Shown in pieces: positions 20,258-56,542 of a stretch of 64,000 nucleotides of DNA (position 1 is the first letter of the stretch; each line of letters starts with the position of its first letter). The position numbers and the translations under genes are program-made. Source of the stretch: Squalus acanthias (lineage: Eukaryota); contig CM059431.1 in assembly GCA_030390025.1 (NCBI GenBank), positions 96,784,001-96,848,000 of the forward strand. Reading direction: 5' to 3'. The notes beneath the pieces are model-generated. The model was not told the DNA's origin. It worked only from the letters and a program-made list of their open reading frames with translations, and did not search any database.

Positions 20258-21185
20258 GGGGGGGGGGGGGGGGGGGGATATCAAACTGTGACCGGGGGAG
20301 GGGATTCAGCCTGTGACTGGGGGAGGGTGGGGGGGGTCAGCCTGTGACGCGGTAGGGGAGGGGTCAGCCTGTGACGCGGTGGGGGGGGGTCAGCCTGTGA
20401 CGTGGTGGGGGAGGGGTCAGCCTGTGACACTGGGGGTGGAGGGGTCAGCCTGTGACACCGGGGGTGGAGGGGTCGGCTTGTGACGCGGTGGTGGAGGGGT
20501 CAGCTTGTGACGCGGTGGGGGAGGGGTCAGCCTGTGACGCGGTGGGGGAGGGGTCAGCCTGTGACACCGGGGGGGGGAGGGGTCAGCCTGTGACACCGGG
20601 GGGGAGAGGTCAGCCTATGATGCGGTGGGGGGGAGGGGTCAGCCTGTGATGCGGTGGGGGGGAGGGGTCAGCCTGTGATGCGGTGGGGGGGAGGGGTCAG
20701 CCTGTGATGCGGTGGGGGGGAGGGGTCAGCCTGTCACGGGGGGGGGGGGGGGGTCAGCCTGTGACGGGGTGGGGGGGGAGGGGTCAGCCTGTGACGGGGT
20801 TGGAGGGGGGGAGGGGTCAGCCTGTGATGCGGGGGTGGGGGGTGGGGGAGGGGTCAGCCTGTGACGCGGGGGGGGGGGGAGGGGTCAGCCTGTGACACCG
20901 GGGGGGGGGGGGGGGGGGGGGGGAGGGGGGAGGGGTCAGCCTGTGACGTGGTGGTGGGGAGGGGTCAGCCTGTGACACCGGAGGGGGGAGGGGGGGGGTG
21001 GAGGGGTCAGCCTGTGACAGCGGGGGGGGGGGGGGGTGGAGGGGTCAGCCTGTGACACCGGGGGGGGTGGAGGGGTCAGCCTCTGACGCGGTGGTGGGGA
21101 GGGGTCAGCCTGTGACGGGGTGGGGGGGGGAGGGGTCAGCCTGTGACGTGGTGGGGGGGGGGGGGTGAGCCTGTCACGGGGGTGT
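20258..21185. repeat. G-rich minisatellite (~30-bp variable unit) with poly-G tracts
   Basis: Unit gaggggtcagcctgtga(c/t)...(g)n. Confidence 0.95.
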
Positions 21186-22369: not shown

Positions 22370-22945
22370 TGAATCGTTTTCATTTACATAGCACCTTTCA
22401 TCTCAGGATATCCAAAAGTGCTTGACAGCCAGTGAAGTATTTTGAAGTGTAGTCACTGTTGTAACCTAGGCAAAATGGCAGCTAATTTGCGCACGGCAAG
22501 GTCCTACAAGCAGCAGTAGTATAATGGCCAAACAATTTGTTTTTAAAGTTGTTGATTGAGAGATAAATATTGGCCAGGACAGGGAGGAGAATTTCCCTGC
22601 TCCTCTTCAAATAGTGGCCGTGGGATCTTTTACATCCACCTGAGAGCAGACGGGGCTTCGGTTTAACGAAAGGCGGCACCTCCGACAGTGCAGCACTCCC
22701 TCAGTACTGCCCCTCCGAAAGTGCGGCGCTCCCTCAGTACTGCCCCTCCTACAGTGCGGCGCTCCCTCAGTACTGCCCCTCCTACAGTGCGGCCCTCCCT
22801 CAGTACTGCCCCTCCGACAGTGCGGAGCTCCCTCAGTACTGCCCCTCCGAAAGTGCGGAGCTCCCTCAGTACTGCCCCTCCGACAGTGCGGCACTCCCTC
22901 AGTACTGCCCCTCCGACAGTGCAGCGCTTCCTCAGTACTGACCCT
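22370..22945 (-). mobile_element. SINE (Deu-domain type) with an internal 33-bp segment amplified ~8x
   Basis: Matches the single-unit copy at 59795-60060; tandem cctccgacagtgcggcgctccctcagtactgcc at 22679-22941. Confidence 0.8.
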
Positions 22946-23777: not shown

Positions 23778-24232
23778 GAGGACGGGTGCCGAGGCACAGG
23801 AAGTCGCTCCGAGGCCTGGCGCCGAGGGACAGGAAGTCGCTCCGAGGCACAGGAAGTCGCTCCGAGGACGGGCGCTGAGGCACAGGAAGTCGCTTCAAGG
23901 GACAGGAAGTCGCTCCGCGGGCTGGTGCCGAGGGACAGGAAGTCGCTCCGAGGCCTGGTGCCGAGGGACAGGAAGTCGCTCCGAGGCACAGGAAGTCGCT
24001 CCGAGGACGGGCGCTGAGGCACAGGAAGTCGCTTCGAGGGACAGGAAGTCGCTCCGCGGGCTGGTGCTGAGGGACAGGAAGTCGCTCCGAGGACGGGCGC
24101 TGAGGCACAGGAAGTCGCTCCGCGGGCTGGTGCCGAGGGACAGGAAGTCGCTCCGAGGACGGGTGCTGAGGCACAGGAAGTCGCTCCGAGGGACAGGAAG
24201 TCGCTCCGAGGGACAGGAAGTCGCTCCGAGGG
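23778..24232. repeat. Compound minisatellite of 20- and 33-bp units, 16 copies of core acaggaagtcgct
   Basis: Direct count of the core motif. Confidence 0.95.
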
Positions 24233-26628: not shown

Positions 26629-29600
26629 ATAGAAAGATAGGAGCAGGAGTAGGCCATTCGGCCCCTCGAGCCTGCTCCACCATTCAATGCGATTATGGCT
26701 GATCATCCAAACTCAGTACCCTGTACCTGCCTTCTCCCCATATCCCTTGATACCTTTAGCTTTAAGAAATATATCTAACTTATTCTTGAATATATTTAAT
26801 GACTTGGCCTCAACTACCTTCTGCGGTAGAGAATTCCACAGGTTCACCACTCTCTGGGTGAAGAAATTCTTCCTCATTTCTGTCCTAAATGGCTTACCCA
26901 TTATCCTTAGATTATGACCCCTGGTTCTGGACTCTCCGACCATCGGGAACATTCTTCCTGCATCTAGTTTGTCCAGACCTGTCAGAATTTTATATGTTTC
27001 GATGAGATCCCCTCTCATTCTTCTATACTCCAGCGAGTATAAGCCCAATCGTCCCAATCTCTCCTCATAAGTCATTCCTGCCATCCCAGGTATCAGCCGT
27101 GTGAATCTTCGCTAAACTCCTTCCATGGCAAGAACATCCTTCCTCAGATAAGGCGACCAAAACTGCACACAGTACTCAAGGTGTGGTCTCACCAAGGCCC
27201 TGTACAACTGCAGCAGGACATCCCTGTTCCTATACTCAAACCCTTTCGCTATGAAGGCCAACATACCATTTGCCTTCTTCACCGCCTGCTGCACCTGCAT
27301 GCTTACTTTCAGCGACTGGTGCACAAGGACACCCAGGTCTCGTTGCACTTCCCCTTCTCCCAATCTATTGCCATTCAGATAATAGTCTGCCTTTCTGTTT
27401 TTGACACCAAAGTGGATAACCTCGCATTTATCCACGTTATATTGCATCTGCCACGCTTCTGCCCACTCTCCCAACCTGTCCAAATCATCCTGGAGTTTCT
27501 CGGTATCCTCCTCGCAGCACACACTCCCACCCAGCTTTGTGTCATCTGCCAACTTGGAGATATTACATTTAGTTCCCTTATCTAGATCATTAATGTATAT
27601 TGTGAATAGCTGGGGTCCAAAGACCGATCCCTGCGGTACCCCACTAGTCACTGCTTGCCACTCGGAAAACGACCCATTAATTCCTACTCTCGCTTTCTGA
27701 CCGCCAACCAGTTCTCTATCCAAGTCAATACCTTGCCCCCAATCCCATGTGCCTTAACTTTACACGCTAATCTCTTATGCGGGACCTTATCGAAAGCCTT
27801 TTGAAAGTCCAAATACACCAAATCTACTGGTTCTCCCTTATCTATTTTCCCAGTTACATCCTCAAAAAATTCCAGTAGATTAGTCAAGCACGATTTACCT
27901 TTTGTAAATCCATGTTGACTTTGTCCGATCCTGTCACTGTTTTTCAAGTGCTCAGCTATTACATCCTTTATAATGGACTCTAGCATTTTCCCCACTACCG
28001 ATGTCAGGCTTACCGGTCTGTAATTCCCCGCTTTCTCTCTACCACCCTTTTTGAATAGTGGGGTAACATTAGCTACCCTCCAATCCATGGGTACAGTTCC
28101 AGATTCCATCAAATGTTGGAAGATGATCAGCAATGCATCTACTATTTCTAGGGCCACTTCCTTAAGTACCCTAGGATGTAGATTATCAGGCCCTGGGGAT
28201 TTATCGACCTTCAATCCTGTCAATTTCCCTAACACCATTTCCCTGCAAATACTGATTTCTTTCAGTTCCTCCCTTTCATCAGACTGTATGTTCTCCAACA
28301 TCTCTGGGAGGTTATTTGTGTCCTTTGTGAAGACAGAACCAAAATATGCATTTAATTGGTCTGCCATTTCTTTGTTCCCCATTGTAACTTCCCCCGCTTC
28401 TGACTGCAAGGGACCTACACTTGATTTCACTAATCTTTTTCTCTTCACATATCTATAAAAGCTCTTACAGTCAGTTTTATGTTCCCAGCAAGCTTACTTT
28501 CATATTCTATTTTCCCCTTCTTAATGAATCCCTTTGTCCTCCTTTGTTGAATCCTAAACTGCTCCCAATCCTCAAGGTTACTGCTTTTTCTGGCCAATTT
28601 ATATGCCCTCTCCTTGAATCTTATGCTATCCCTAATTTCCCTTGTTAGCCACGGTTGAGTCACCCTTTTTGTTTTATTCTTATGCCACACTGGGATGAAC
28701 AAATTCTGTAGTTCATCCATGCAGTCTTTGAATGTTTGCCATTGCCTATCCACCGTCAACCCCTTGAGTGACATTCCCCAATCAATCCTGCCCAATTCGC
28801 GCCTCATACTATCGAAGTTTCCTTTATTTAAATTCAGGACCCTAGTCTCTGATTCAACTACTTCACTCTCCATCCTAATGAAGAATTCTATCATATGATC
28901 ACTCTGACCCAAGAGGCCTCGTACAACAAGATTGCTAATTAATCCTTTCTCGTTGCATAATACCCAGTCTAAGATGGCCTGATCTCTGGTTGGTTCCTCG
29001 ACATATTGTTCCAGAAAACCATCTCGTAAACATTCTAGGAATTCCTCCTCCACAGTATTTTTACTAATTTGGTTAGCCCAATCTATATGTAAATTAAAGT
29101 CACCCATGATGACTGCTGTGCCCTTTCTGCATGCTTCTCTAATTTCCCTTTTTAATGCCGTCCCCAACCTCCGTATTACTGTTTGGAGGTCTATATACAA
29201 CTCCCACTAACGTTTTTTGCCCCTTGTTATTTCTCAGTTCTACCCATACAGATTCCGCATCATCAGAACTAATATCCTTCCTTTCAATTGTGTTAATCCC
29301 CTCTTTAACCAGCAATGCTACCCCACCTCCCTTTCTTTTTTGCCTATCTTTCCTAAATATTGAATAACCCTGGATGTTGAGTTCTCAGCCTTGGCCACCC
29401 TGGAGCCATGTTTCTGTAATCCCAATCAAATCGTATTCATTTACCTCTATTTGCGCAGCTAATTCATCCACCTTGTTCCCAATGCTCCTTGCATTAAGAC
29501 ACAAAGCCTTCAGGTTTGTTTTTTTAACGCTCTCAGACCTATATGAATTATTATTTACTGTGACCATGTTTGATTTAAACCGTTGAGTTCTTTGCCTTCT

Positions 29601-30710: not shown

Positions 30711-31347
30711 CTCTCAACAGACTCGGAGATTGGTTGTTGCTTTCGGCCTTTAACATCCTACAGGATCAGTGTCAGCAATGGCCCCCACTGCGTCGACCCA
30801 TCCCTGGGACATATTGGCAGAGACTAAGGGAACACCCTGGCGGGGTGGAGGCGGCAGGGCAGTAGAGCGTCAACTCCAAGTCTCCTTCAACATCCAGCGG
30901 AGTGGGCTCGGGTCAGATGGGCGATTGGAGGATAATTCTGACGGCATTCTTTTGGCACGGGGTTTCGATGTCACAGTTTCTCTTTTCATACAGCTTCTCT
31001 ACCACCCGAAGCTGGGGGAGGATTCACCAGGAAAATCCATGCCGTGCAATGGGTTTTGCTGTGTCGCTATGTGAAAACCGTAACCCGTCATAAAGCACTT
31101 TATAGCTGGAAAGTTAAAACTCCCGCTTTATCACAAGTGTGGAGAGATGAGGCCAAGATTACATTTTCCATGTTTTTTAAATTTTCAGAGAAATGATTTC
31201 CTGATCTATTCGATTACTGACTCTGGGGCTACACCAAGTCTGTACTTGCAAAAACAGCCAACTCTACTCTCAAAATAGACAAGAAAGAGTTTCCTTAACC
31301 ACCAGCTAACAAGAGAGGAACTAACATAGTTAAATTATAAAGCTACA

Positions 31348-31353
31348 TTTATT
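31348..31353 (-). terminator. Candidate polyadenylation signal of the minus-strand giant-exon gene
   Basis: AATAAA on - strand ~220 nt after the TAG at 31571. Confidence 0.6.
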
Positions 31354-31570: not shown

Positions 31571-34500
31571 CTAGGAAGCAGTTAAAACGTCATCGTCTCC
31601 ATCATCATAAAATGAAATAACTGAGTATCCAGATGGAAAAGAAGCATCATCACTCCTGGGAGATGATGACTGGATCAGAGAGCTGGATGTACTTGATAAA
31701 TAATCATTGCTCATGGTACACAATGAATGGGTAGAGGAACTCCAAGCATCCGATGAATCATCAGGACTAGTGGACGAAGGAAATATGGAAGAACTAGGCG
31801 CAGGTGATAAAATAGATGCCAAATCCGTGGAATACTTGTACCGAGATAACGGTACAAAAGAGCGTGAAACTCGTGGTATAATTTTAGTAGCATGAGTGGA
31901 CTGTGACTGGCTGGAAGAATCAGATTCATCGTGTTTTATATAAGCACTCATGCTGTGTGGTTGGCTGCAAGAATGGTGCACACCTTGAACTTCTTCATCA
32001 ACATGGGCAAACCTGGAAAGATGTGCAAGACCTTGTACACTATTATCAGTATGGGTGTACATTGATCGGATGGAAGGAAGAGGTGCACCTGGTACATTAC
32101 CTGGCACCTGAGTAGATGGTAATTGAGTGGATAAATTAGATGCAATTTGTTGACCATCACCAACATAAGTGGGTGATTTGGGGGAACACCTAGACACACC
32201 CTGTGCATTATCACTGACCAGGCTGACTGACTGGGCAGAAAAACTGGATCCAGGTATTACACTATAAAAAGCATGGGGTGATTGTGAATGCTTAGAAGGT
32301 CTGAATACATGTAATATATCTGATCTGTTATCAACATGAGTGGATGGATAGGAACCACCTTGTGGATTATTACTAATAGGACTAGATCGGGATTGGGTGT
32401 ACGAACAAGAAACACCTTGTGGATTATTACTAACCAGATTGGACCGGGACTGGGTGGGTGAATAGGAACCACCTTGTGGATTATTACTAACAGGACTGGA
32501 CCGGGACTGGGTGGGTGAATAGGAACCACCTGGTAGATTATTACTAACAGGACTGGACCTGGATTGGGTGGATGAACGAGAAACAGTTTGTGGTTTATTA
32601 CTAACATGAGTGGTTTGGGACTGGGTGGATGAACTAGCACCTCTTGTGTTATCAGTATGGGTGTGCAGTAATTGGGGGGAAGTCGGAGAAAGGCTTTGCA
32701 AGTTATCACCCACTTGGGTGGATAGTGATTGGATATAATATGATGCATCTTGTGCATTACTATTAACGTGAGCTGACCATGATTGGGCAGATGAATTGAA
32801 CACAATTTGATCATCATTATCAGTGGGAGACAGTGATTTGGCTACATCTAATGAATTATCATGGATAGCATGGGAGGTTGGTGAATGGATGTAGGGTCTG
32901 AAAACTTGCTTATCAGTAATACTAGTGGATGAATGAGATACACCTCGTACATTTTTACTAACAGGATTGGGCAGTGAACTGGTGGAAGAAGGAGCAGCTT
33001 GTACATTATCTGCCACATCAGCAGACGATGATTGGGTGGCTGGAATATAAGGAACTTGTTGACCATCACCAACATAAGTGGATGGTGACTTGGGGTAAGA
33101 CTTGTATAGACCCAATATATTATCTCTGACAAGGGTGGATAGTGAATGGTTGGAAGAATTGGATACAGTTTGCTCACTCTCTTCAGTTTCGGGCAGTGAA
33201 GGGACAGAACTAGATGCAGGTCTTGCATTATGATCAACAGAACCAGATGGTGAATGGATGGAAAAACTAGATGCACTTTTCGCACTCTTTTCAGCTTTGG
33301 ACCATAGTGAATGGACAGAAGAACTAGATGCAGGTCCTGCACCATAATAACCATGGTGAGGCGGTGAATGGATGGAAGGTCTGGATTTATGTAATGAATC
33401 TTGTCTGATATCATCATCATCATCATCATCATTGGTATTAACAGGATTGAGCTGTGTTTTGGTGGAAGGGCACGCAGCTTGTTCATTATCTTCACGGGTG
33501 AACGGAGTGGAAGATGCAGATACACCTTGAATGTCATCAATATGGGTGCCAAATATTTGGTTGAATGTGCACGGTAAACACTGCAAATTATCCGCAATAA
33601 GAGAGGACAGTGATAGGGTAGAAGAACTTGATCCACTTAGTGCATTGGGGTCAATGTAGGTGCACTTGGAAGAATTGGATATACCTGGTGTATTATCATG
33701 GGCAAGGGTGAACATTGATTGGGAAGAAGAATGAGAGAAGTCTTGTCTATGATCTGTTCCATAAGAGTGCTGTGATTGCATGGATGAATTGGATACATCT
33801 TGCTGACCATTATTAAAATAGATTGATGGTGATTTTGGGGGTGACTTGGATAGATTCTTGCTGAGAGAGGTGGATAGTGAGTGCATGGAACGACTGGCTG
33901 CAGTTCTTGCAGTGCGATCACTGTGAGAGGATGGTGAATTGACAGGAGGCCTGATTTCATGCAATACACATTGTCTGTTATCAACATTATTGGGGAATGA
34001 TTGGGTTGAGGGATGAGAGACACCTTTTGTATTATTAATGTGAGTGGACAGTGATGTGGGAGAACAAACATCTCTCACATCACCACAGGTGCAAACCTGA
34101 GTGGAAGAAGCAGACACATCTTGTATATTTTCAACATGAGAAGATGGCACTTGGCTTGATGAATGAGATGGACTTTGTGCGCTGTGGTTAACAAAGGTGC
34201 ACAGTGAATGGGTGGGAGATATAGATACACCTCTTGCATCATCCTGAACAGAAATTGATGGTGATCTGGCAGAAGAATATGTACATTGTGCATTATCTGC
34301 CACATGCGTAGACAATGTTGATGGTCTACAAGTTGTAAGTTCATCATCAACATCTGTGTACAGTGATTTGGAGGAAGACTTGAATTCGTCTAGTGCATTA
34401 TCTTTGACATGGACGGATGGTAAATGGATGGAAGAACTGGAAATATTTTGTTCACAGTCATGCAGAGAATAGGAATGGAGTGAAGAACTGGATGGTCTGA

Positions 34501-37500
34501 ATGTTTGTAATACACCTTGTCTATTTTCACCAACACGGGTAGACAGTGATTGGGACAGAGAACGAGAAATGCCTTGTTGTATAGTGTCACCTACATGAGT
34601 GGACCGTGATTGGGACAGAGAACGATAAAGGCCATCTGCATGGGTGGACAATGATTGGGACAGAGAACGAGAAACGCCTGGTATAGTGTCATCTGCATGG
34701 GTGGACAGTGATTGGCACAGAGAACGAGAAACGCCTTGTATAGTGTCATCTGCATGGGTAGACCGTGATTGGCACAGAGAACGAGAAATATCTTGTATAG
34801 TGTCATCTGCATGGGTGGACAGTGATTGGGACAGAGAACGAGAAACACCTTGTATAGTGTCATCTGCATGGGTAGACCATGATTGGCACAGAGAACGAGA
34901 AATGTCTTGTATAGTGTCATCTGCATGGGTGGACAGTGATTGGGACAGAGAACGAGAAACGCCTTGTATAGTGTCATCTGCATGGGTAGACCGTGATTGG
35001 CACAGAGAATGAGAAACGCCATCTACATGGGTGGACAGTGATTGGGACAGAGAACGAGAAACGCCTTGTATAGTGTCATCTGCATGGGTAGATCGTGATT
35101 GGCACAGAGAACGAGAAACGCCATCTGCATGGGTAGACCGTGATTGGCACAGAGAACGATAAACACCATCTGCATGGGTAGACAGTGATTGGGACAGAGA
35201 ACGAGAAACGCCTTGTATAGTATCATCTGCATGGGTAGACCGTGATTGGCACAGAGAACGAGAAACACCATCTGCATGGGTAGAACGTGATTGGCACAGA
35301 GAACGAGAAACGCCATCTGCATGGGTAGAACGTGATTGGCACAGAGAACGAGAAACGCCATCTGCATGGGTGGACAGTGATTGGGAGAGAGAACGATAAA
35401 CACCTTGTATAGTGTCATCTGCATGGGTAGACCGTGATTGGCACAGAGAACGAGAAACACCATCTGCATGGGTGGACAGTGATTGGCACAGAGAATGAGA
35501 AACGCCTTGTATAGTGTCTGCATGGGTAGACCGTGATTGGCACAGAGATCGAGAAACGCCAAGTACAGTGTCATCTGCATGGGTGGACAGTGATTGGATG
35601 GGTAAGTTAGATACAGCTGGTGCAATACTATCAACATGAGTGGACAGTGAATTGCTGGGGGGTTTGGATACAGTTCCCACACTGCCATCTACATAAGGAA
35701 GTGATGAATAGTTGGGATAACTGGATCCACTATGTGGATAATCAGTAACATTAGAAGCTAATGAATGGGTGACAGAATCAGATACACTTTGTTTATTACT
35801 ATCAACCTGAGAAGTTGATGAATGGATTGAAAGTCCGGTTCCACCTTGTTTGTTAGCAGCAACATTGGAACACGGTGATTGGATGGAAGGATGCAACAGA
35901 TCTTGTGCCTCACCAGCAACATGCGAGAGCAATGATTGGGTGGAAGAACAACAACTATCTATCAGATTATCTTCGACATGAGTGGACAGTGATTGCATGG
36001 GTAAGTTGTATGCACCTTGTAAAACATCACCAACAAAGATGGATGGTGAATGATTGGAAAAACTGGATATATATCCTGTGTCAGCATTGGCAGGGATGAA
36101 TAGTGAATTGCTGGAAGAGTTGAATACAGTTCTTGCATTATAATAAAGATGATCAGGTGAATAAGTGGATGCATTCCATACTCCACTGTCAAAATGGGAA
36201 GAGATTGAATGTCTGGATACACGCAGGACACTTTGTATGTTATCAATACTGGATGGTGGTGACTGGGTGGAAGAATTAAATACATGTTGTACATGATCAT
36301 TAATATGAGTGGCAGATTCAGGTTCATTGTCACCAAAATTGGTGGGCAGTGATTGGAAGGAAACATGAGATACACTGCGTTTTTTGTCACCAACCTGGAT
36401 GGGCAGTGATCCGATAGAAACATGGGGTGCACCTTGTTCATTGTCACCAACATAGATGGGCAGTGATTGGTTGGAAGAATGCGGTACACCTTGTGCATTA
36501 TTTTCAACACAGGTGAATACTGATTTGGTGGTGGAATTGGATACATTTTGTATGTTATCATGAAAACGAGAGGACAGTGACTGTGTGGGAGAATAAGATA
36601 CACGTGCACTGTCATTAGCATGAGGGGACAGTGATTGAGCGGAAGATGCATGTGCTTTGTCATTAGCACGAGGGGACAGTGATTGAGCGGGAGAATAAGA
36701 TCCACGTGCTTTGTCATTAGCACGAGGAGACAGTGACTTTGCAGGAGAGTAAGATGCACGTGCTTTGACATTAGCACGAGGGGACAGTGATTGAGCGGGA
36801 GAATAAGATCCACGTGCTTTGTCATTAGCACGAGGGGACAGTGACTTTGCAGGAGAGTAAGATGCACGTGCTTTGTCATTAGCACGAGGGGACAGTGATT
36901 GAGCGGGAGAATAAGATCCACGTGCTTTGTCATTAGCACGAGGGGACAGTGACTTTGCAGGAGAGTAAGATGCACGTGCTTTGTCATTAGCATGAGGGGA
37001 CAGTGATTGAGCGGGAGAATAAGATGCACTCTCTGTGTTGTCAACACAGGTGGACAATGATTTAATGGATGAATCATTAATGCCAATAGACAGTAAATGA
37101 CATGGTGACTTACTGTTTATACTATCGTCCACATGGGAACATGGTGAAGAGATGGAGAAATTCCATACATGTCTTGTACTAACATCAATATCGGGAGATG
37201 GGGAACGGTTGGAAGGTCTGGATATTTGGTGTACACTACCATCAACAGGGGTAGATGGTGGAAGAATGGCAGAACCAGACAAATATTTGAATATACCTTG
37301 TTCCTTATCAACAGCACAGGACACTGATCTAGAGGAAGAATTAGATGTACCTTGTGCATTATGTTTAACAGGGGTGGAAGAATTAGATACACATTGTACA
37401 TCAACTACGTGGGTGCATAACGGTCGGGTGGAAGAGTTGGACGCATGCTGTGTATTATCAGCAACATGGCTATGTAGTGAATCTTTGCCATTCTCATGTG

Positions 37501-39174
37501 TCAGTGCTTCACTATAACAATAAGGATATATAAACTGTGCATTTGGCCTTGATCCAAGAGAATAGTGGCGTGATTTTGGTGGGCTAATGGATCTTGCTCT
37601 GCTAGCTCTCGTATGTCTATCTGCTACCTGGTTAACTGATAGTGATTCCGTGTAAGAGCAGGATCTTTTGTGAGGGACATGGAAGATTCGGGTTATCGGT
37701 ATTTTTATTGGCTTTTGATGAGCATCATTCCTTATCGATGAGGTGTTATCTTGTACCTGGTGTCCTTCAGAATTGGTATATGGCGATTGGACAGGAGAAT
37801 AACACACAGCTCGTTCATTATCATCAGCTGAAGTGTCTGGTGGTCTGATGGAATAACTTGATACTCCTTGTATATTACCAGGAACATGTGGGGATGATAG
37901 CTGGATGGATGAACCCAATGTAATTGGCTTATTGCTGTCCTGTTTGGATGATTCACTGAAACAGTAAGTGTATTCAATGGATTCTTTGAGACTTAATCTA
38001 GGTGAATAGGGACATGATTTTTGTTGGCCAACAGATTTTGTTTTTCTCTCTCTCACGTGTCTATCTGTTCTGTGATTAACTGACACGGATCTAATGTGAG
38101 AGGAGGATCTTCTATCAGTAGGATGGAAGATTCGAGTTGTAGGTATTTTTATAGGCTTTTGACAGTCACCCCAGTTGTGTGAGTGAACGTCATCATCTTG
38201 TGCTCTGTATTGCTCCACACAGGAAGGCCTAGCTATGGCTTGAACTTTATCAGTCGCATGGGGGGATAATGATTGAATGAAATGCCCAGATGTGTGTGTT
38301 ATATCATCATCAGTGTGGAATGGCAGTGTTTGGATAGAAGATGTATATATACTTGGCACATTGTCATCATGGAAGAACACTGAGTCAGTGGAATAATTAA
38401 ATACATCTTGTTCATTATTGCCAACTTGTGTGGATGGGGATTGTATGGGAGAACTGGAGGTACCTTGTATATTGGCATCAGCATGTGGGTACAGTGTTTG
38501 AATTGGTGAAGTAGGGACCCCATCCGCATTGATATCAGTATGCCTGGGTGGCGATGAGATGGATCCATGTACGCAATCATCAAGTTGATTAAATGTCAAT
38601 CTGATTGATGAATTGGCTATAGCTTGTACGTCATCGGCTTGGGTGGGTGGTAACTGGTTGTGATGAGGCGAATGGGAATTGATGCGAATCATTATGGGAG
38701 AGGATGGTTCTGTTGTAACTCTTCCTTTTTTTGACCGTTGGACAGAATATCCACTTGCATACAAGCTGCCAATTTGTTCTGTGTATTCCCTCATGTTATC
38801 TGCTTTTGAAGGCATACGTCCTGCATTATCAGAATCTTTTCTAGAACCTGTTGGATATGGTGAAAAGTGGTGTTTGGGCATAGATTGTTCCAGCATATCT
38901 GAATGATTCCAAAACGATTGTTCTGGGAGCGGGGGTGCAATAGGTAAGTCACCATACGATTTGCTTCTGTCTTTCCTGCTTTCAGTAAAAATGGACTCAT
39001 TGCTCCCGTGATGTTTGCCTCTCTTGTGAATTTTGCGCTGTGGGAATTTCAAAAAAGTCACTTTGTGATTCCTTTTCATTTTCTTATTATGTCCATCAAT
39101 TGCACCCTTCCTGTGTTCAACTGGAATGTGCTGAAATCCCCCAAGAAGTGGCCTATAATTTGAGACATAAACAC
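31571..39174 (-). CDS. Giant terminal coding exon (~2,530 aa) of an unrecognised Ser/His/Thr-rich repetitive protein
   Basis: Stop-free frame from 39241 to the TAG at 31571; internal repeats vary only by multiples of 3 nt; phase-compatible acceptor cataaag|GT at 39174 (alternative attccag|TT ~48 nt further in); exact 5' boundary uncertain. Confidence 0.88.
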
Positions 39175-39479
39175 CTTTATGTTGACATTTATACAAATAT
39201 TGAAAGATACAGGCAACACTACAGTGGAACTGCCACTTAGATTATATGCAATGGATGAATTCTAATAAAATATTCCCATTGTGAGTATATTTATTATTTT
39301 AATATTAGTGTTTCTTTCAGTTCCACAGTGTACAAGCTGGAAATATCCAGCCGGGAACCCTATATTCCTAGATCTGCCCACCAAGACTTAGCTCAATTCC
39401 TTCCACTTGACATGTTCTATTACTGACTCCACACAACCCATTTAATATTGAGGAAAAATTCTCCCTGCACTGTACTCAC

Positions 39480-40036: not shown

Positions 40037-42196
40037 CTTAAGGAAATACACAAAGTCAAGGTAAGAGTTGTGAAGTAACAGCACAGGACACACAGACATA
40101 AAGGAAAGTAGCATGAAGTGCTACTCAGTTGCTAGCTCAGTTGGTAGCACTCTCAGCCTAAGTCAGAAGCTTGTGAATTCAAGTCTCACTCCACAATACA
40201 TCAGCAGACTTCTCTATCGCCATAACAGGGGCTATTGTTAGTGAACAACAACTTGCATTTATATAGAAGAGCGTCCCACGGTGCTTCACAGAAGTGTAAT
40301 CAGATGAAAATGGACACCAAGACAAAGAAGCAGATATTAGGAGGGGTGGCTAAAAGCATGGTCAAAGAAATAAGTTTTAAGGGGAGTCTTAAGGAGGAGA
40401 GGTTTGGGGAGGACATTCCAGAGAGTGGGGCCTCGATAGCTGAAGGCACAGCTGCCATTGGTGGGCAAAGTGAATGGGGGATGCACAACAGGCTAGAGTC
40501 AGTGTATATGGGCATGTTGAGGTAGCATATCAGACAAATTGCAGATTAAATGCACACTGTGATAGGTAGCAGCGATTCTACAGGCCCTCCACTGTCCACA
40601 GTCCTGATGCTTTACAGCTTCGTCCTGAATAAATCACTAACTTTTTTTCACATTGTCCCTCCCTGTTGAGGGACTTCAGTGATGTGGAGAAGCTGGGATT
40701 GCTCTCCTTAGAGCAGAGAAGGTTAAGGGAAGATTTAATAGACGTATTCAAAATGATGAAGGGTTTCGATAGAGTAAATAAGAAACTGTTTCCAGTAGCT
40801 GGAGAGTCAGTAACCAGAGGTTACAAATTTAAGGTCATTGATTCGATGTTATGTATGAGTTTCGCCTTTTATCATAGGATTTAGGCAGTGTGATGAGTAT
40901 TTCTTTCTTCAGTGGCATGTATAAATAATTTGCAATGCACTAATTGTAGAAGAGCAAACTACAGAGGGATGAAGGAGGACTTTGTGTGGAAAGATTAACT
41001 GGTAAACAGTGGAGCAACACTTGGGATTATTTAAGTGTTGGATGGGTCAGCACAGTCTAGGGCTGCATCTGGGGACAGTCCAGGGGCTGCGACTAGGAAC
41101 AGTCATGGGGCAGTCTAGGACTGTTGTTTCAGATTACTGGAAATAAAGGACAAAAACAATGCAGGTGACAAATCTAAAGCCAGTGACACAACAGTCACAA
41201 GAAACAAAGAGAAAGGTAAAGAGAGCTGAGAGGGAATATGGGGGGTGAAAGTTTGCAGCCAACGTAAAGGGAAACAGCAAAGATCTTTATGAACACTCGA
41301 GGAAAAAGATTATTAAAGATGTGTGAAGCCACTCAACTGAGATGATTATGGGAGAAAAGAAATGAATACTTTGCTTCAGAACTTAGAGCACAGAAAGTCT
41401 TTAGGCTTGTGGATAAAGGCAGTCAATAGAAATTTAATATGGAGAAATGTGAGGTGATACATTTTGGGTGGAATAATGAGTGGAAATGTACACTAAGTGG
41501 TGCAACTTTAAAAGAGGAACAGGGAGAACTAGGGGTTCAGATACAGAAATCACTACAACTGGCAGGACACATTAATAAAGTTGTTTTTAAAAAAGAGCAT
41601 ACGGCAATCTGAGGTTTTATAAGAGCTAAATAGTAATGCTAAATCTATACAAATCATTGTTTAAGCTCCAGTTAGCATATTTCTAGAGGAATAGAATTAA
41701 AAAGGAATAGAACTAAAAAGTAGAGAAGTTCTGTTAAACTTGAATAGAACCTTGGTTAGACCACACTCGGAGTACTGTGAACAGTTCTGATCTCCATATT
41801 AGAAAAGGATTTAGAGGGACTAGAGAAAGTGCAAAAAAGGTATGATACCAGAACTGAGAACTTAGAACTATCAGACTTATAACTGAACGGGCTGGGGCTC
41901 TTTTCTGTAGAAAAGAGAAGGCTGAGGGGTGACCTGATAGAGATCTTTAAAATTATGAAGGGGTTCGATAGGGTAGACGTAGTGAAGATGTTTCCACTTG
42001 TGGAGGAGACCAGAACTAGGGGCCATAAATATAAGATAGTCACTAATAAATCCAATAGGCAATTCAGGAGAAACTTCTTTACCAGAGAGTGGTGAGAATG
42101 TGGAACTCGCTACCACAGGGAGTGGTTGAGGCGATTAGCAAAGATACATTTAAGGGGAAGCTAGATAAGCACATGAGGGATAAAGGAATAGAAGGA

Positions 42197-43594
42197 AACA
42201 ACAACAGAAAATGCTGGAAAAACTCAGCAGGCCAGGCAACATCCGTGGAGAGAGAAACAGAGTTAACATTTCAGGTCGAAACCCTTCGTCAGAACTGAGA
42301 AAAAAGCAGGAAATGAAACAGTTAAAAAAGCAAGGGGGAGGCTGGGGGGAGGAGTAAAAGAACAAAAGGGGTGGTCTATGGTAAGTAGAGACATTAAGAG
42401 ATGCTCAAGGCAAGACGAGATGGTAATAGGACAGGCTAAGAAACAAAAGGTGGCTAGAAGTGTGAAGTGTGAAATGCCCTCGACCGTGTCCGTTCTATCT
42501 CCCGCACTTCTGCCCTCACCCCGGCCCCTCCCTCCCGGAACCACGATAGAGTTCCCCTTGTCCTCACCTTTCACCCCACCAGCCTCCACATTCAACGGAT
42601 CATCCTCCGCCATTTCCACCACCTCCAACGTGATCCCACCACCAAACGTATCTTCCCCTCACCTCCCCTTTCAGCATTCCGTATGGACCGCTCCCTCCGA
42701 GACACCCTACTCCACTCCTCTATCACCCCCAGCACCCCTTCTCCCTTGCCTGGCACCTTCCCGTGCAAGTGCAGGAGATGCAACACTTGCCCTTATACAT
42801 TCCCCGCTTCCCACTCTCCAGGGCCCCAAACACCCCTTCCAGGTGAAACAGCGATTTACTTGTACTTCTTGCAATCTAGTATACTGTATTCGCTGCTCAC
42901 GATGTGGTCTCCTCTACATTGGGGAGACCAAACGCAGATTGGGTGACCGCTTTGCGGAACACCTCCGTTCAGTCCGTAAGGGTGACCCCGAGCTTCCGGT
43001 CGCTTGTCATTTTAATTCACCTCTCCACGCCCACTCAGACCTCACCGTCCTCAGCCTCGGCATTGTTCCACGGAAGCTCAGCGTAAGCTCGAGGAACAGC
43101 ACCTCATCTTCCGATTAAGCACTTTACAGCCTTCCAGACACAATATCGAGTTCAACAATTTCAGATCATAACCTCGGCCCCTACCACATATATATATATA
43201 TATATATATTATCCACCTTTTGGTTTGTGCCTTTTCCCTTATTTTTCTCTCTCTCCCCCCACGGCAGCTGTCTCTCATTCTGCCAGCATTTCACACTTCA
43301 CACTTCTGAGCCACCTTTTGTTTCTTAACCTGTCCTATTACCATCTCGTCTTGCCTTGAGCATCTCTTAATGTCTCTACTTACCATAGACCACCCCTTTT
43401 GTTCTTTTATTCCTCCCCCCAGCCTCCCCCTTGCTTTTTTATCTGTTTCATTTCCTGCTTTTTTCTCAGTTCTGACGAAGGGTTTCGACCTGAAACGTTA
43501 ACTCTGTTTCTCTCTCCATGGATGTTGCCTGGCCTGCTGAGTTTTTCCAGCGTTTTCTGTTGTTTCAATTTTCCAGCATCCGCAGTATTTTGCT
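42197..43594 (+). mobile_element. Penelope-like element, 5'-truncated, with ~280-bp inverted termini and GIY-YIG endonuclease remnant
   Basis: FTCTSCNLVYCIRCSRCGLLYIGETKRRLGDRFAEHLRSVR (GIY-YIG, CxxC); 42197-42477 is the reverse complement of ~43287-43566; ~14-bp TSD aaggaatagaagga / aagaaatagaagga. Confidence 0.92.
43467..43503 (+). ncRNA. Minimal type I hammerhead ribozyme motif in the PLE terminus
   Basis: agtt-CTGACGA-a-gggt-ttcg-acct-GAAACGTT-aact: intact CUGANGA and GAAA..UH core, palindromic ACGU stem III. Confidence 0.75.
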
Positions 43595-43717
43595 AAGAAA
43601 TAGAAGGATATGCTGATAGGGTGAGATGAAGTAGGGGTGGGAGGAGGCTTTTGTGGAGCATAAACACCAGCATGGACCAGTTGGGTCAAATGGCCTGTTT
43701 CTGTGCTGCAATTCTAT

Positions 43718-44473
43718 GGCCCAGAAATTCCGTTCGCAGGCCTCCCGCGGGCGGAGGGCTGCGATCTGGAAAAATCTGCACCTGGACCGGAGGGCTCCCA
43801 GGAGGCGCAGAGTTCCGTTGCTGGGCCTCTCCAAACTGCCAGTGTGCAGGGCCCACGTGATCCAAGAGGCGCAGGTAGTTCACAGCGTCCCTGGGATCAC
43901 GTGGGCCATGGGGAGCCAATCAGAGAAGGGAATCTCCCTTCATACATTTGACAGGAAGACCTGTCAAATATATGAATGGAGATCACCCCCAAAACATAGT
44001 AAAACTTTAAATAAATTAAAAAAAAAAAATCACATTTTTAAAATGACTTTAAATGACATAAATTAAGTATTTTAAACAAAAATTTTATTTTTTGAAAAAA
44101 ATAATTAAAGTTTTTAACGGGGCTAAAAATAAACTTACCTTTCTTTAAAGTATTTTTAAATGATAAATCAGTGGAAATTAAAAAAAACACTTTTTTCAAC
44201 TCTTATCCTGGTAAAAGCAGGCCTTACGCTGCTTTTCCAGGCGCAAGAATTGTAAGTGTTTTCTGCGGGCGGAGGGTCTCCCAAAAATGGAACTCTCCTC
44301 CCGCAGAGGCCCTTCTCCCGGGCAGCCGGAGGATCTGTCAAGAGCTTTCTTGACAGCTCGGAAATGCCGGTTTCCAGCGCATGCGCAGTGTATGCCTAAA
44401 ACCGGCATTTCTGATGGCCCTGTGGGTGAGTACACAGCGCGTACACACCCGTAGGGAACGGAATTTCTGCCTC
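43718..44473. mobile_element. MITE (Harbinger-like) with TIRs and 3-bp TSD
   Basis: GGCCCAGAAATTCCGTTC ... GAACGGAATTTCTGCCTC, flanked by tat/tat; GC-rich arms with an AT-rich centre. Confidence 0.78.
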
Positions 44474-45491
44474 TATGTAATTACAACCAGTCTGCCCACG
44501 CTGCACAGAAGGCTTTGGCTGGAGTTTGGATATCTGTGAGCAAGATTACTGACACCTGGAAACCTGTCACCCACAGTGACTGACTAACGATCACTAGAAT
44601 CCAACCATTCTAAATTATAATTGTTTCAGGGGAAGGGTTAAATGTGACTGTAGTGTTGCAGGGAGTGGGGTGGGGGGTTCACATGCTGTGTCAATTCTGG
44701 TACAACAATGCTGTCTAGGAACCACAGGAAATGCCATTTTGGTGACCTGTTACTTGAGGCTCTAGCAACGGGTGTGAGGGAATATCCAAGCACGAGCTAT
44801 GGAGTGGATGGGTATCTCTTCCCCCTGAAATGAAGGAGGTGCCAGGACATTGCCGAGCGAACAAACACTGTTCTGAACCCAGTGGAGTTACGGGGGATGC
44901 TGCAAGAAGTTGTCTGGCATACGAAACCTGGCCAGGTAAGTCATTTTATATTAACGTGCACCTGCCTCATGGCATGGGAAAAGGTCAACACTGACAAACA
45001 TCTCAGCCAGAAATGTTAGCCCATCTGAGTCTGAAGTGCAGTTCGCACCTGAAATGTCAACTTGTGTGCTCTCTCCCCAGATGCTGCCTGAACTGCTGAG
45101 TGTTGCTGAGAGAGCAGTGCTGGACTGGCGACAATTTATATGAATCGAAGGAAAGATACAAGGGTGAGGGGAATGAGTTGGTTGATGTGCCAAGCCCCTG
45201 GCAACCCAATTCAGAAAGCACAATGATGGAAATACCTTTTAAACATCCAATGTATCATACAGACCAGGCTCTGTCCAGACTTTCTCAGTGTCCTGTGTGC
45301 TGTCAAAGTTTCAATACCGCTTTTAATTTGATCTTTAACATATGGGAATGCCTGTTTCCTTGGGGAACACTGATCCTTCACCCTTTGTGGGGTAGAGTGA
45401 AACTGGAGAGTCTGCCCGAGCTCACGGTTGACCCAGTCAATCTCCCGAACTGCTGCCCATGGTGAGTTGGAGGATGCAGTCTATCACTCAC

Positions 45492-45608
45492 TTGTAGAAG
45501 ACTTTCTGCTGTGTATACTGCAATGGCTCCATCCTGTGTTTGGGCCCCAACTCTCCACTGTCATCTCGAAATAGCGCATGTCCAAACTTATTCTTCACCA
45601 GCAACACT
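45492..45608 (-). CDS. Putative internal exon of the giant-exon gene (117 bp, phase 2 to 2)
   Basis: ctttcactatctgattttag|A GTG...TAC AA|gtgagt; only one open frame: VLLVKNKFGHALFRDDSGELGPKHRMEPLQYTQQKVFY. Confidence 0.7.
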
Positions 45609-46294
45609 CTAAAATCAGATAGTGAAAGATGTTTTATCCAGAATAAATAATAAACGAAAAATCAAATGACCATTTACAGTCCTCACCACTTAAACTGCCC
45701 ATATTTAAATCGGGGAAAGAGCACTAACCATTTGCTGTTAGCAGTATTGTCAGTTACAGATTTGCTGCTCAGTGTGTTAAGTGCGGCGGCTGTTCCAAAC
45801 AGACACAGGTGTTGAGTGAATAGTTCGCACCGTGTTAAGGTGCAGTTCCTTGTTATAATTCTGGGTTATGGAGCCACGCGAGTTCAGCAGAAGAGAAGCT
45901 GAGCAAAGTTGACTGATCCTGTGGACAGCATCAGTACGGAAGCAAGTGAAGAGTGTGTCACATCCAATTGTCAGTATGACAATCGTACACAACACTACAT
46001 GATAACTATAGTGTTTTTGCAGCAGAGAAAAGAGAGGGCCAGAATTAGAGAGTTTGAGCAGCGCTTCCCAGTACCTGATCACTGCAGGATTCTTCTCGAA
46101 TAGTTAGCGACAATGGAGATTAATGGACTTTAAACGGAACTGTCTGAAATACTTGTTAAGGAAAAAATCCTTCCAGTCAGGGTTATAAAGAAGCAGCATA
46201 GCTTCAATAAACTGTCTAACACATGTAGTGGGCAAACCACATTAGCACCAAAGCACCCGCTGTAAGACGTGGGGACTGTACCTCATCTTACAAT

Positions 46295-46804
46295 CATAGA
46301 AATTTACAGCACAGAAGGAGGCCATTTGACCCATCGTGTCTGTGCCGGCCGAAAAAAAGCTATCCAGCCTAATCCCACTTTCCAGCTCTTGGTCCGTAGC
46401 CCTGTAGGTTACAGCACTTCAAGTGCATATCCAAGTACTTTTTAAATGTGATAAGGGTCTCTGCCTCTACCACCCTTTCAGGCAGTGAGTTCCAGACCCC
46501 CACCACCCTCTGGGTGTAAAAAGTTCTCTTCAACTCCCCTCTAATCCTTCTACCAATTACTTTAAATCTATGCCCCCTGGTTATTGACCTCTGCTAAGGG
46601 AGATAGGTCCTTCCTATCCACTCTATCTAGGCCCCTCATAATTTTATACACCTCAATTAAATCTCACCTCAGCCTCCTCTGTTCCAAAGAAAACAACCCC
46701 AGCCTATCCAATCTTTCCTCATAGCTAAAATTCCCCAGCCCAGGCAACATCCTCGTAAATCTCCTCTGTACCCTCTCTAGTGCAATCACATCCTTCCTGT
46801 AATG
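46295..46804 (-). mobile_element. CR1 LINE 3' fragment (same subfamily as 8935-9945)
   Basis: HYRKDVIALERVQRRFTRMLPGLGNFSYEERL; near-identical 3' UTR. Confidence 0.93.
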
Positions 46805-46989
46805 AATCTCACTGGTAAAGTCATAACTTAAAGTATGGAATTGATTTACGTGTGGAAAAAATAATGAACAAGATGCTACACAGTAAAATAGAACATCATC
46901 TGATACAATGGAGCAAAATGTTAAAATCATCATTTTTTTAATGAATTGAAAGTAAGCAATGGCAATATGTATTTTAATTTGTACACAAC

Positions 46990-47085
46990 CTGGCGTTATG
47001 GAAGAATTTCAGTCCCATAGCTCTGTCCTTATTTTTATATTCCGATTTTCTATTCATATGTCCACAGTTATAATGGGAACTGTCT
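46990..47085 (-). CDS. Putative internal exon (96 bp, phase 2 to 2)
   Basis: gtttacag|A GAC...GCC AG|gttgtg; DSSHYNCGHMNRKSEYKNKDRAMGLKFFHNA; phases fit both neighbours. Confidence 0.62.
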
Positions 47086-49131: not shown

Positions 49132-51013
49132 GGTTTGCACAGAGCGGGATTAAATGGAGTGGACTTGAACAGAGTGTTTTATTTGGGAATTTGGAAAGAG
49201 TGGGAATTCGGAGAAGAGAGGGAAGGAGTTGTTGCTTTTTGCCTACAATACTTGTAGTGCTTTGTGATACAGGTAGATATTTAATTTCAGTACCCTTAAC
49301 TTAATCTAGATCAAATAAGTAGTCAAGAAACTACACTGTAAACTTAAGTTACCTAAATACAAATTTAATTAATCATATAGGGATGGCAGTGCAGGTGGTG
49401 TGCCGTAACTGCAGCATGTGGGAGTTTGTGGAGAGCATTGTGATCCTGGACAATCATGTTTCTAGTAAGTGCCTGCATCTTGAGGAACTTCAGCTCAGAG
49501 TTTTTGAGCTGGAGTTTGAGGTTCAGACATTGCGGGGCATCAGGGAGGGGGAGAGTTACCTGGACACTTTGATCCAGGAGGCAGTCACACCTCTTAGGTT
49601 AGATAGTGGTACAGGTCTGGTTAGTGGTCAGGGACAGGAGGGTGTGACTGCAACTCAGGCAGGTAAGGGGACCCTAGGTGCAGTGCTGGAGGAGCATCAG
49701 CCTTTGCCCTTGTCCAACAGGTATGAAGTTCTTGCTGCCTGTGTGGATAAGGGAAAAGCCTGCAGGATGGATGAGCAAGCTGACCATGGTGCAGGAGGCC
49801 ATTCAAGTGGAGGGAGTGAAAGGGAATGTAGTTGTGGTAGGGGACAGTATAGCCAGGGGGATAGATACTGTTCTCTGCAGCCGTGACCGAGAGTTCCAAA
49901 GGTTGTGTTGCCTGCCCGGTGCCAGGGTTAAAGACATCTCCTCGCGGCTGGAGGAGAACTTGGAGTGGGAGGGGGAGGATCCAGTTGTCGTGGTCCATGT
50001 AGGAACCAACAACATAGATAGAACTAGGAATGAGGTTCTGCTGAGGGAGTTTGAGGAGCTAGGATCCAAATTAAAAAGCAGAACCTCAAAGGTAATAATC
50101 TCCAGATTGTTACCTGAGCCACGCGCAAATTGGCATAAGGACAAACAGATTCTAGGTTTAAATGCATGGCTGAAAGAGTGGTGTGGGAGGAAGGGGTTTC
50201 AGTTCATGGGGCACTGGCACCAGTACTGGGGAAAGAGGGAGCTGTTCCGTTGGGACGGGCTCCACTTAAACCGGGCTGGGACCAGTGTCCTGGCAAACCG
50301 AATAACTAGGGCAGTAGACAGGGCTTTAAACTAATGAAGGGGGGGTGGGAGGATTCAGGAAAGAGTGAATTTAAAAGCAGCGAGAGAAATGTCAAGGCTC
50401 TAGAGCAGAGTAGACTTTTGGGTAAAAATAAGCAGAGTGGGTCAGGAAGGGACAGAGAGAGTAACAAAGGTAATAAGGCATCAGTGACTAGGGTGACATC
50501 AGGGAAAAATAGAAATAAGTCAAAGCTAAATGCACTATATCTGAATGCGTGAAGCATTGACAACAAAATAGATGAATTAATAGCGCAGATAGAAATTAAC
50601 AGGTTTGATCTAATAGCCATAACACACATGTGGTTGAAAAGTGGCCATGGCTGGGAACTAAATATTCCAGGATACTTAACGTTTAGAAGAGATAGGCAAA
50701 ATGGAAAAGGAGGAGGGGTAGCCCTGATAATAAAGGATGGGATGAAGACAGTAGAGAGAAAGGATCTTAGCTCTGAAAATCAAGAAGTAGAATCAGTTTG
50801 GGTAGAGCTAAGAAACAGCAAGGGGCAGAAAACATTGGTGGGAGTTGTTTATAGGCCTCCAAACAGTAGTTGTAATGTAGGGCAGAGTATAAATCAGGAA
50901 ATTAGAGGTGCACGTAACAAGGGTAATACAGTGATCATGGGGGACTTTAATTTACATATAGACTGGGCAAACCAAATTTGCAGTAATAGTGTGGAGGACA
51001 AATTCATGGAATG

Positions 51014-51240
51014 TGACATGAATCTGTCATTCATGAAAGAAAGACTTATGAAATAATACTGAGTGGCCTGCGGGTGGCGATGTCCAGGGAGAGTATAAAT
51101 ACTCGGGCACGGGCCCAGCTTGCGCAGGACATTCTTAACCGGAACTAGTGAAGGACACAACTAGACCTCCATGTTGTAAAACAGTTGATTAAAGCTTTGT
51201 TTAACGCTTAGACCAAGTGCCTAGTAGTTTTCTTACATCA
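51014..51240 (+). mobile_element. Solo LTR (227 bp) inserted in CR1 ORF2
   Basis: TG...CA termini, 5-bp TSD GAATG (51009-13, 51241-45), TATAAATA and ATTAAA inside; removal restores ...KFMEC.QDSFLDQYV. Confidence 0.85.
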
Positions 51241-56221: not shown

Positions 56222-56363
56222 TGTTGGTTATCCATGATGGGGCAAGATGTAGAAAGAGCCGTGACTGAAACTACTGAAAATACGAGAAATGTGATCACGA
56301 AGCCAAGGGCCAGAAGGTGATTCAGAGGATAATTCTTTTCTGGTTCCCATCCATCATTAGCCT
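56222..56363 (-). CDS. Putative exon encoding a transmembrane/signal-anchor segment (142 bp, phase 1 to 2)
   Basis: tttttttttataaaacag|AG...CA|gtgagt; ANDGWEPEKNYPLNHLLALGFVITFLVFSVVSVTALSTSCPIMDNQ. Confidence 0.72.
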
Positions 56364-56542
56364 CTGTTTTATAAAAAAAAATTCTAAATGAGTGAGATAT
56401 ATTAGAGTAAGGTCAAAATTCGATCCTCTATACATATTTATATTTATTTGTGATTAACTTTGTTAAACTTTGAATAAACTAATCATTAAATACTAGACAT
56501 TCAACAAGTAGTTGATTGCAATTCATTAAATAACAGTCGCAC

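Follow-up and report, generated by a model that had tools for sequence, protein, structure and literature searches.

Here we report a gene with a giant terminal coding exon on the minus strand of a 64,000-nucleotide (nt) stretch of the Squalus acanthias genome (GenBank assembly GCA_030390025.1, contig CM059431.1, forward-strand positions 96,784,001 to 96,848,000). The whole stretch is called the window below, and positions are counted from its first letter unless the contig is named. An earlier annotation, made by a model from the letters of the window (the original prediction), had pointed to an uninterrupted exon there for an unrecognised repetitive protein. As judged from its sequence, this open reading frame (ORF) is the giant terminal exon of a single-copy protein-coding gene with three coding exons. 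The gene encodes a taxon-restricted, tandem-repeat, disordered protein and is not a new kind of genetic element. The explanation that we favour overall, with moderate confidence, is an elasmobranch gene for a giant disordered repeat protein that works via short motifs and multivalency.

A single-copy frame open over 2,556 codons

The stop-to-stop frame comprises 2,556 codons (31571..39241, minus strand), and the other five frames hold 37, 260, 176, 114 and 137 stops over the same 7.67 kb. From base composition, the chance of meeting no stop over the length of the frame was ln P = -126.7. Tandem Repeats Finder (TRF) assigned no more than 2,012 of the exon's 7,582 bases to in-frame tandem arrays, so that about 5.5 kb of non-array sequence is open too and repeats do not explain the frame. 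By contrast, a non-coding 33-nt minisatellite of 48 copies in the same window (11893-13489) gave ORFs of at most 562 codons, which were open in several frames and on both strands simultaneously, unlike the giant exon.

The Pfam scan of the window protein yielded no family over the cut-off, and no reverse transcriptase, endonuclease, integrase or transposase. A DUF3106 match (22.9 bits) was below the cut-off, lay inside a young array and was rejected. When a 1,851-nt piece of the exon was searched as DNA against the 3.71-Gb assembly, exactly one match was found. A protein query of 670 amino acids (aa), run with a stricter first-pass filter, gave two matches from 29 scored candidates, namely the ORF itself and its own internal repeat. 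The ORF thus has neither the domains nor the multiple copies of a retrotransposon, a DNA transposon or an endogenous virus.

Gene model and splice sites

The gene model consists of the following features, all on the minus strand.

56367..56373, minus strand: possible TATA box TATAAAA, 132 nt upstream of the ATG; putative, read from the sequence
56222..56235, minus strand: coding part of exon 1, ATG plus 11 nt, encoding MDNQQ with the last codon split; donor GTGAGT next
45492..45608, minus strand: exon 2, 117 nt, 39 codons, a frame-preserving cassette; acceptor ttttAG, donor GTGAGT
39153..39241, minus strand: intron sequence, fortuitously open, 89 nt, the 5' part of the frame first reported
31571..39152, minus strand: exon 3, the giant last exon, 7,582 nt of coding sequence ending in the TAG stop (31573-31571); colinear with four full-length orthologues
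31348..31353, minus strand: AATAAA, candidate poly(A) signal, 218 nt past the stop; read from the sequence

All five residues of MDNQQ were found at 56235-56221, with GTGAGT beginning after the 14th base. The peptide is identical at five of five positions to the starts of the Scyliorhinus and Chiloscyllium models and resembles the MDNRQ/MDDRQ of two rays, and its ATG lies in a good context (A at -3, G at +4). The chance of encountering MDNQQ plus GT in the ~25 kb upstream was about 5e-5 (hand arithmetic, no tool). There is no CpG island around exon 1, where the observed/expected CpG ratio is 0.36-0.49.

Exon 2 was recovered by tblastn with the N-termini of rays (E=5.4e-8 for Narcine, 4.1e-5 for Leucoraja). 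It is present in all three ray models and skipped in both shark models, the exon boundaries of other species being deduced from their protein models only. Since its protein-level sequence is conserved in Squalus, the exon is probably still used here. The acceptor of exon 3 is tatAG/G at 39153/39152 (AG = 39154-39153). Similarity to the orthologues begins directly after this acceptor, which indicates that the first 89 nt of the reported frame are intron. Because exons 1 and 2 each end two bases into a codon and exon 2 measures 117 nt, the joins 1-2-3 and 1-3 are both in frame. The spliced coding sequence of 7,713 nt is predicted to encode 2,570 aa; skipping exon 2 leaves 2,531 aa. Both splice forms occur among the RefSeq models.

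Several points of the original prediction held at this level. It had described a stop-free frame of more than 2,500 codons, which is the 2,556-codon frame, against 37-260 stops in each of the other frames; an absence of reverse transcriptase, endonuclease and transposase motifs, in agreement with the Pfam scan; and an AATAAA about 220 nt past the stop, seen at 31353-31348. The high genomic copy number that it had named as the mark of a mobile or viral element was not found, the sequence being single copy in the assembly. Its uninterrupted 7.6-kb exon needs trimming: 31571-39152 is indeed one exon, but 39153-39241 is intron and two small coding exons lie upstream.

Orthologues occur in sharks and rays

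When 5.8 billion proteins were searched through a word index, 7,347 candidates yielded four hits, all of them elasmobranch. An exhaustive search of 1,835,955,588 representatives with a profile of the N-terminal 670 aa returned five hits, again all elasmobranch, namely these four and a Pristis fragment.

XP_072332086: Scyliorhinus torazame, 1,824 aa
XP_072434218: Chiloscyllium punctatum, 2,169 aa
XP_069746478: Narcine bancroftii, 1,992 aa
XP_055492584: Leucoraja erinacea, 2,370 aa
XP_051881514: Pristis pectinata (sawfish), 307-aa fragment

No non-elasmobranch protein reached E<=0.001 with the N-terminal profile among the 1.84 billion representatives. The full-alignment profile accepted none of 2,728 candidates among proteins of 30-1,002 aa, and the C-terminal profile, run against proteins of 451-2,000 aa with the best 8,000 candidates scored, found two family members only. 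For proteins of 1,003-1,404 aa, coverage came only from the N-terminal profile and, to 2,000 aa, from the C-terminal word-indexed search. The gene has so far been found only in sharks and rays, to which it appears to be restricted.

The window protein matched the four full-length members at E=0, end-to-end and colinearly over 1,726-1,970 aligned residues, with identities of 58.6, 51.6, 47.1 and 45.4%. The family shares an MD[ND][QR]Q start (four of five models), five conserved islands, an SGY..S.YDD end and a 19-aa periodicity. The family exon layout, with a tiny start exon, an optional 39-codon exon and a giant terminal exon, was recovered in the window with matching phases and, for exons 1 and 2, splice sites that fit the consensus. 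The window protein is longer than its orthologues (2,570 versus 1,824-2,370 aa) owing to two private arrays (36566-37029 and 34537-35597); the private array of Leucoraja sits elsewhere in the alignment. Identity to the two rays is higher for the window protein (47 and 45%) than for the other two sharks (34-39%), which suggests unequal rates of evolution of the gene among shark lineages.

The claim of a real, lineage-restricted gene is in line with the single copy, the colinear orthologues, the synteny described below and the lack of any non-elasmobranch relative in these searches; the comparison with proteins of other genomes that the original prediction had proposed gave elasmobranch orthologues only. 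Its word "unrecognised" fits in so far as no function or known family was found, but RefSeq already predicts the orthologues, under the names "uncharacterized protein" or "serine-rich adhesin for platelets-like" (the latter in Narcine and Leucoraja). None of six accession or locus names occurred in the full texts searched, which contained no paper on the gene.

Conserved islands and a duplicated module

In the alignment of the five full-length sequences, 252 of the 1,417 columns filled in all five were invariant, and these clustered in five islands. The conserved elements are listed from the N-terminus to the C-terminus.

39014..39085, minus strand: island 1, basic, KK.K.N..VTF.K.PQRK..K..K, 14/24 columns invariant in 5 species
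38912..38956, minus strand: island 2, proline motif LPIAPPLP, 10/15 columns invariant
37928..38161, minus strand: module copy 1, ~78 aa, KIPxTRIFH ... SVN..DRH ... Y.YC[FY]SE, from BLASTP against copy 2
37484..37717, minus strand: module copy 2, including island 3, from BLASTP against copy 1
37559..37600, minus strand: island 3, R.RSISP.KS, 9/14 columns invariant
32267..32302, minus strand: island 4, RPSKHSQSPHAF (SQSPHAF), 8/12 columns invariant
31724..31807, minus strand: island 5, SPAPSSSIFPSSTSPDDSS.AWS.S..S (SPAPSSS.FPSSTS.DDSS..WS), 20/28 columns invariant
31574..31663, minus strand: acidic C-terminal tail, SPRSDD ... SGY.V.S.YDD, conserved; protein end in common with the rays

The two module copies were 44% identical over 78 aa without gaps (BLASTP, E=1e-18), and both aligned in all five species. 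Island 1 holds an RVxF-type motif, [HR][KR]VTF, and also fits the pattern of a bipartite nuclear localisation signal (NLS). The refined RVxF expression used was [HKR][ACHKMNQRSTV]V[CHKNQRST][FW]. It matched once per protein in five of five proteins, at the same aligned site, against 0.1-0.2 matches expected; [HR][KR]VTF is also present in the Pristis fragment.

The frame has stayed open in six lineages despite replacement of 40-65% of the amino acids, and this requires selection against truncation. Selection has probably kept the frame and the islands, with most of the remaining sequence drifting fast, which is how disordered proteins that act by short linear motifs plus bulk length and composition usually evolve.

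Degenerate repeats and lineage-specific arrays

The protein is a long chain of degenerate repeats of 18-19 residues with the core QS.S[TP]H[VA].DN.Q. By autocorrelation, residue identity in the window protein was 0.20 at lag 19, compared with a mean of 0.09. The same lag ranked first in three of the four orthologues, Scyliorhinus, Chiloscyllium and Narcine; Leucoraja was dominated by its private 33-aa array. A hidden Markov model of the 19-aa unit recovered the young array only, so autocorrelation and motif counts were used instead, and by these the 19-residue periodicity reaches well beyond the young arrays. The unit motifs QS.S, S[TP]H, H[VAI].[DN] and [DG][DN].Q were 6-11-fold over shuffles in the window protein and weaker in the orthologues. 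In the same kind of count, SQ/TQ and CK2-type sites showed no enrichment, and a cluster domain for ATM/ATR or CK2 was no longer considered. The arrays detected within the exon are the following.

36566..37029, minus strand: young in-frame array of 54-nt (18-aa) units, 8.7 copies, TRF 84-93% matches; a gap in four orthologues
36322..36499, minus strand: short array of 57-nt units, 3.1 copies, TRF
34537..35597, minus strand: young in-frame array of 45-/57-nt (15-/19-aa) units, 19 units, unit SRSL[CS]QS.STHAD(DTIQ)GV; absent from the orthologues
32340..32648, minus strand: array of 57-nt units, 5.4 copies; longer, different arrays at the same place in the orthologues

Different in-frame arrays of the repeats have been re-expanded in each lineage. 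In a related species, about 3% divergent, a DNA contig is missing 264 nt, equal to 88 codons, at window positions 36610-36873 inside the 54-nt array. Given this in-frame loss, the array behaves as an in-frame variable-number tandem repeat between close species.

Composition and predicted disorder

The modelled protein contains, in per cent, S 21.1, D 6.7, P 6.5, T 6.3, Q 6.1, V 6.0 and H 5.3, with 204 K+R, 216 D+E and 137 H residues. Across all five family proteins, Ser makes up 17-21% and His 4-6%. AlphaFold2, run with five-sequence alignments as input, gave a mean predicted local distance difference test score (pLDDT) of 32.1 in the N-terminal 670 aa, where only two short helices were predicted, and of 44.5 in the C-terminal 257 aa, where secondary structure was absent. 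Both the richness in S, H, T, D, Q, P and V and the disordered look noted in the original prediction are therefore reproduced by the modelled protein. The region bearing the RVxF-type motif had pLDDT <50, and so combines the motif with the predicted disorder that marks the class of proteins interacting with protein phosphatase 1 (PP1).

The grand average of hydropathy was -0.69. The highest hydropathy over 19 aa was 0.97 in the window protein and 0.61-1.15 across the five proteins, which gives no sign of a signal peptide or membrane segment in it or in the four orthologues. Pfam searches of all five family proteins at E<=1 gave only three unrelated sub-threshold matches, in one member each. 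Searches of the PDB by sequence and with two profiles gave no match, and in the ESM Atlas the best score was 0.75, within the noise range.

Position between TUBGCP3 and a SoxB1 gene

The neighbouring genes were located in the window and on the contig around it.

Contig 96572886-96589008, minus strand: P4-type phospholipid ATPase, exons ~195 kb to the left of the window, where ATP11A is expected
2528-2812, plus strand: TUBGCP3 exon, human GCP3 residues 389-451, E=3.8e-33
6900-6986, 10787-11476, 18175-18267 and 19515-19655, plus strand: TUBGCP3 exons (GCP C-terminal domain)
Contig 97014225-97015229, minus strand: intact SoxB1 gene of a single exon, 334 aa including runs of Ala/Gly and His, ~167 kb right of the window

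Plus-strand ORFs of at least 38 aa at 19.7-31.3 kb did not include the last TUBGCP3 exons. As TUBGCP3 lies on the plus strand and runs toward the 3' end of the giant-exon gene, the two genes converge. From known features of SOX1 and from synteny, we take the SoxB1 gene to be probably SOX1. The gene order is P4-ATPase (-), TUBGCP3 (+), giant-exon gene (-), SoxB1 (-). A table in PMC6169464 gives the human order as SOX1, SPACA7, TUBGCP3, C13orf35, ATP11A. By this order, the shark gene fills the slot of human SPACA7, between TUBGCP3 and SOX1. The lack of a CpG island, the fast evolution and this position, held in mammals by the testis-specific SPACA7, together make tissue-restricted, perhaps germline, expression plausible.

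Proposed mode of action and alternatives

The disordered protein would act through short linear motifs plus its bulk length and composition. In this scheme, the N-terminal basic [HR][KR]VTF would dock PP1 and/or serve as a bipartite NLS, and the optional cassette exon 2 may let splicing vary the N-terminus. According to PMC5005033, RVxF-type motifs are used by >70% of PP1 regulators. The likeliest single mechanism, which we put forward only tentatively, is that the protein is an intracellular, probably nuclear, heavily phosphorylated multivalent scaffold with PP1 docking and/or nuclear targeting.

Several observations weigh against these proposals. The PP1 idea comes from a regular-expression match and its conservation. 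Both flanks of KVTF are basic, so that the stretch also reads as a bipartite NLS, and basic residues C-terminal to the motif are atypical for RVxF sites. With only five aligned sequences, a low pLDDT speaks less strongly for disorder than it would if the alignment were deep. There is no homologue of known function from which a role could be carried over. The islands apart, the sequence seems weakly constrained: the DNA contig of the related species differs at 32 of 1,043 exon bases (3.1%) and at 121 of 3,467 bases (3.5%) in a stretch that is part exon, part intron. The ratio of non-synonymous to synonymous differences (pN/pS) among repeat units, pooled, amounted to 0.49-0.56 for the large array. 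For the 54-nt array it was 0.74, a value that includes one out-of-register unit, and the unit pairs are not independent. A same-species read run, RNA by guess only, gave short, low-depth, near-identical contigs within the exon. The same run also covers 39214-39411 (intron) and 31005-31196 (beyond the poly(A) signal), and is for this reason read as low-coverage DNA that lends no transcript support. Two further runs guessed as RNA cover almost only repeats, and no splice joint of the gene model was seen in these three runs.

The alternative that survives best, which we consider possible though somewhat doubtful, is that only bulk properties count. The protein would then be a cytoplasmic or germ-cell structural spacer or precursor following a filaggrin-like logic, in which length and Ser/His/Asp composition matter. 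The drift of the sequence under a constant frame and composition (Ser 17-21%, His 4-6%) would suit such a role, as would array copy numbers that vary between lineages, even between close species, and always in frame. The three-exon layout with a giant terminal repeat exon likewise resembles the S100-fused-type genes. With basic residues on both sides of KVTF, the motif would in this alternative be a mere localisation or nucleic-acid/lipid-binding patch with no PP1 part. However, the five islands and the duplicated module are nearly invariant from sharks to rays, which argues for specific partners, and no S100/EF-hand domain was found in Pfam.

A very diverged orthologue of a known vertebrate gene, for example an ancestor of SPACA7 whose similarity has eroded past detection, seems unlikely to us. 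The interval beside TUBGCP3 on the SOX1 side is where human SPACA7 sits, the family evolves quickly (shark-ray identity 34-47%), and search sensitivity was limited, lengths of 1,003-1,404 aa being covered by fewer searches. Against these points, no non-elasmobranch match was obtained with the N-terminal, full-alignment (30-1,002 aa) or C-terminal (451-2,000 aa) profiles. SPACA7, a small (~195 aa) secreted protein, also has a very different architecture.

A stricter form of the PP1 proposal, an elasmobranch-specific PP1 regulatory subunit, is likewise improbable. KVTF would provide the docking site, and exon 2 would add a SILK-like contact, H[SA].[LF][RN][DY]D, ~50 residues upstream of it. The ~100 degenerate 19-residue Ser/His/Asp repeats would form a fast-evolving, phosphorylation-tuned multivalent platform, expressed in the germ line from the genomic slot of the mammalian testis-specific SPACA7. 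If true, this subunit would be an independently evolved analogue of the KNL1/Ki-67-type scaffold.

That the protein is a Ser-rich adhesin or mucin-like glycoprotein, secreted or on the cell surface, as the RefSeq name implies, has very little probability and is close to refuted. The name stands on the Narcine and Leucoraja models and Ser amounts to 21%; yet none of the five proteins has a hydrophobic N-terminus or membrane segment (top hydropathy 0.61-1.15), Pfam shows no adhesin, mucin or anchor domain, and the N-terminus is strongly basic. Finally, a non-functional frame opened by minisatellites that expanded in frame, or an ORF of transposon or endogenous viral origin, hardly comes into consideration and is already refuted by conservation and copy number: minisatellites that make long multi-frame ORFs are abundant in the window, LINE (long interspersed nuclear element) fragments occur too and young tandem array makes up 27% of the exon, but the non-array 5.5 kb is open as well and in one frame only, the sequence is single-copy and without transposon domains, and orthologous ORFs, splice structure and synteny are kept between sharks and rays.

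Comparison with known systems

Returning to the motif-based reading that we prefer, its nearest counterparts are the PP1-docking scaffolds Ki-67, RepoMan and KNL1, which have a giant repeat exon and likewise are long disordered proteins with an RVxF-type motif among basic residues and with short repeat arrays that vary between lineages. PP1 binding is described through RVSF in Ki-67 and RVTF in RepoMan (PMC5005033). The window protein differs from all three in having no sequence homology with them and no FHA, LR or RWD domain in Pfam. A further point against the PP1 part of our reading is that the KiR-SLiM of Ki-67 and RepoMan, given in PMC5005033 as FDxxLP(P/A)N(T/S)PL(R/K)(R/K)Gx(T/S)P and placed there directly behind RVxF and its neighbouring hydrophobic pair, was not found after KVTF. 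What follows there is LKFPQRKIHKR..., and a loose LP...PL (LPIAPPLP) comes only 35 residues later. The repeats of the window protein are neither Ki-67 repeats nor MELT motifs.

S100-fused-type proteins such as filaggrin and hornerin are also Ser/His-rich repeat proteins; small 5' exons precede their giant terminal exon, their repeat number varies and they lack a signal peptide. The window protein has no S100/EF-hand, a 19-aa unit rather than one of hundreds of residues, and another genomic neighbourhood. With the bacterial serine-rich repeat adhesins SraP and GspB, the source of the RefSeq name, high serine content is the sole likeness: the present gene is a vertebrate nuclear gene with introns, and no signal peptide, binding region or cell-wall anchor was found in its product. 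The name "serine-rich adhesin for platelets-like" is a misleading artefact of composition, which is corrected here. The mammalian sperm acrosome protein SPACA7 shares the interval beside TUBGCP3 on the SOX1 side, but no similarity was detected in the profile search covering its size class (30-1,002 aa).

Large lineage-restricted genes are rarely studied, and here a 2,570-residue, almost wholly disordered protein appears to have been kept as an open, spliced and syntenic gene since the shark-ray split. It offers a clean case of probable selection on frame, composition and a few short motifs while repeat arrays turn over. The invariant KVTF motif, the duplicated 78-aa module and the cassette exon are handles by which its role can be tested.

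Repetitive sequence around the gene

Seven G-rich minisatellites lie in TUBGCP3 introns or its 3' region (11893-13489, 13681-14556, 16227-16803, 18577-18823, 20294-21182, 22679-22945 and 23778-24232). Their units are 27-37 nt long, in up to 48 copies with 70-99% matches, and they give multi-frame ORFs on both strands as well as spurious Pfam matches (RHS_repeat and others, none passing). A decayed LINE at 49678-54196 (plus strand) within intron 1 of the giant-exon gene contains a GDSL-esterase-like ORF (E=6e-10), followed by pieces of endonuclease and reverse transcriptase, a layout like that of CR1/L2-type LINEs. A second decayed LINE lies at 26716-29206 (minus strand), downstream of the gene. 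Very high-copy repeats occupy 40600-45400 and 45950-47000 (introns 2 and 1), with summed depths from thousands to >1 million in the DNA run. An ORF at 42267-43115 had a weak GIY-YIG match (E=3.5e-4, below the cut-off) and is possibly the trace of a Penelope-like element. Satellites and LINE fragments are all that was found in the 30 kb right of the window.

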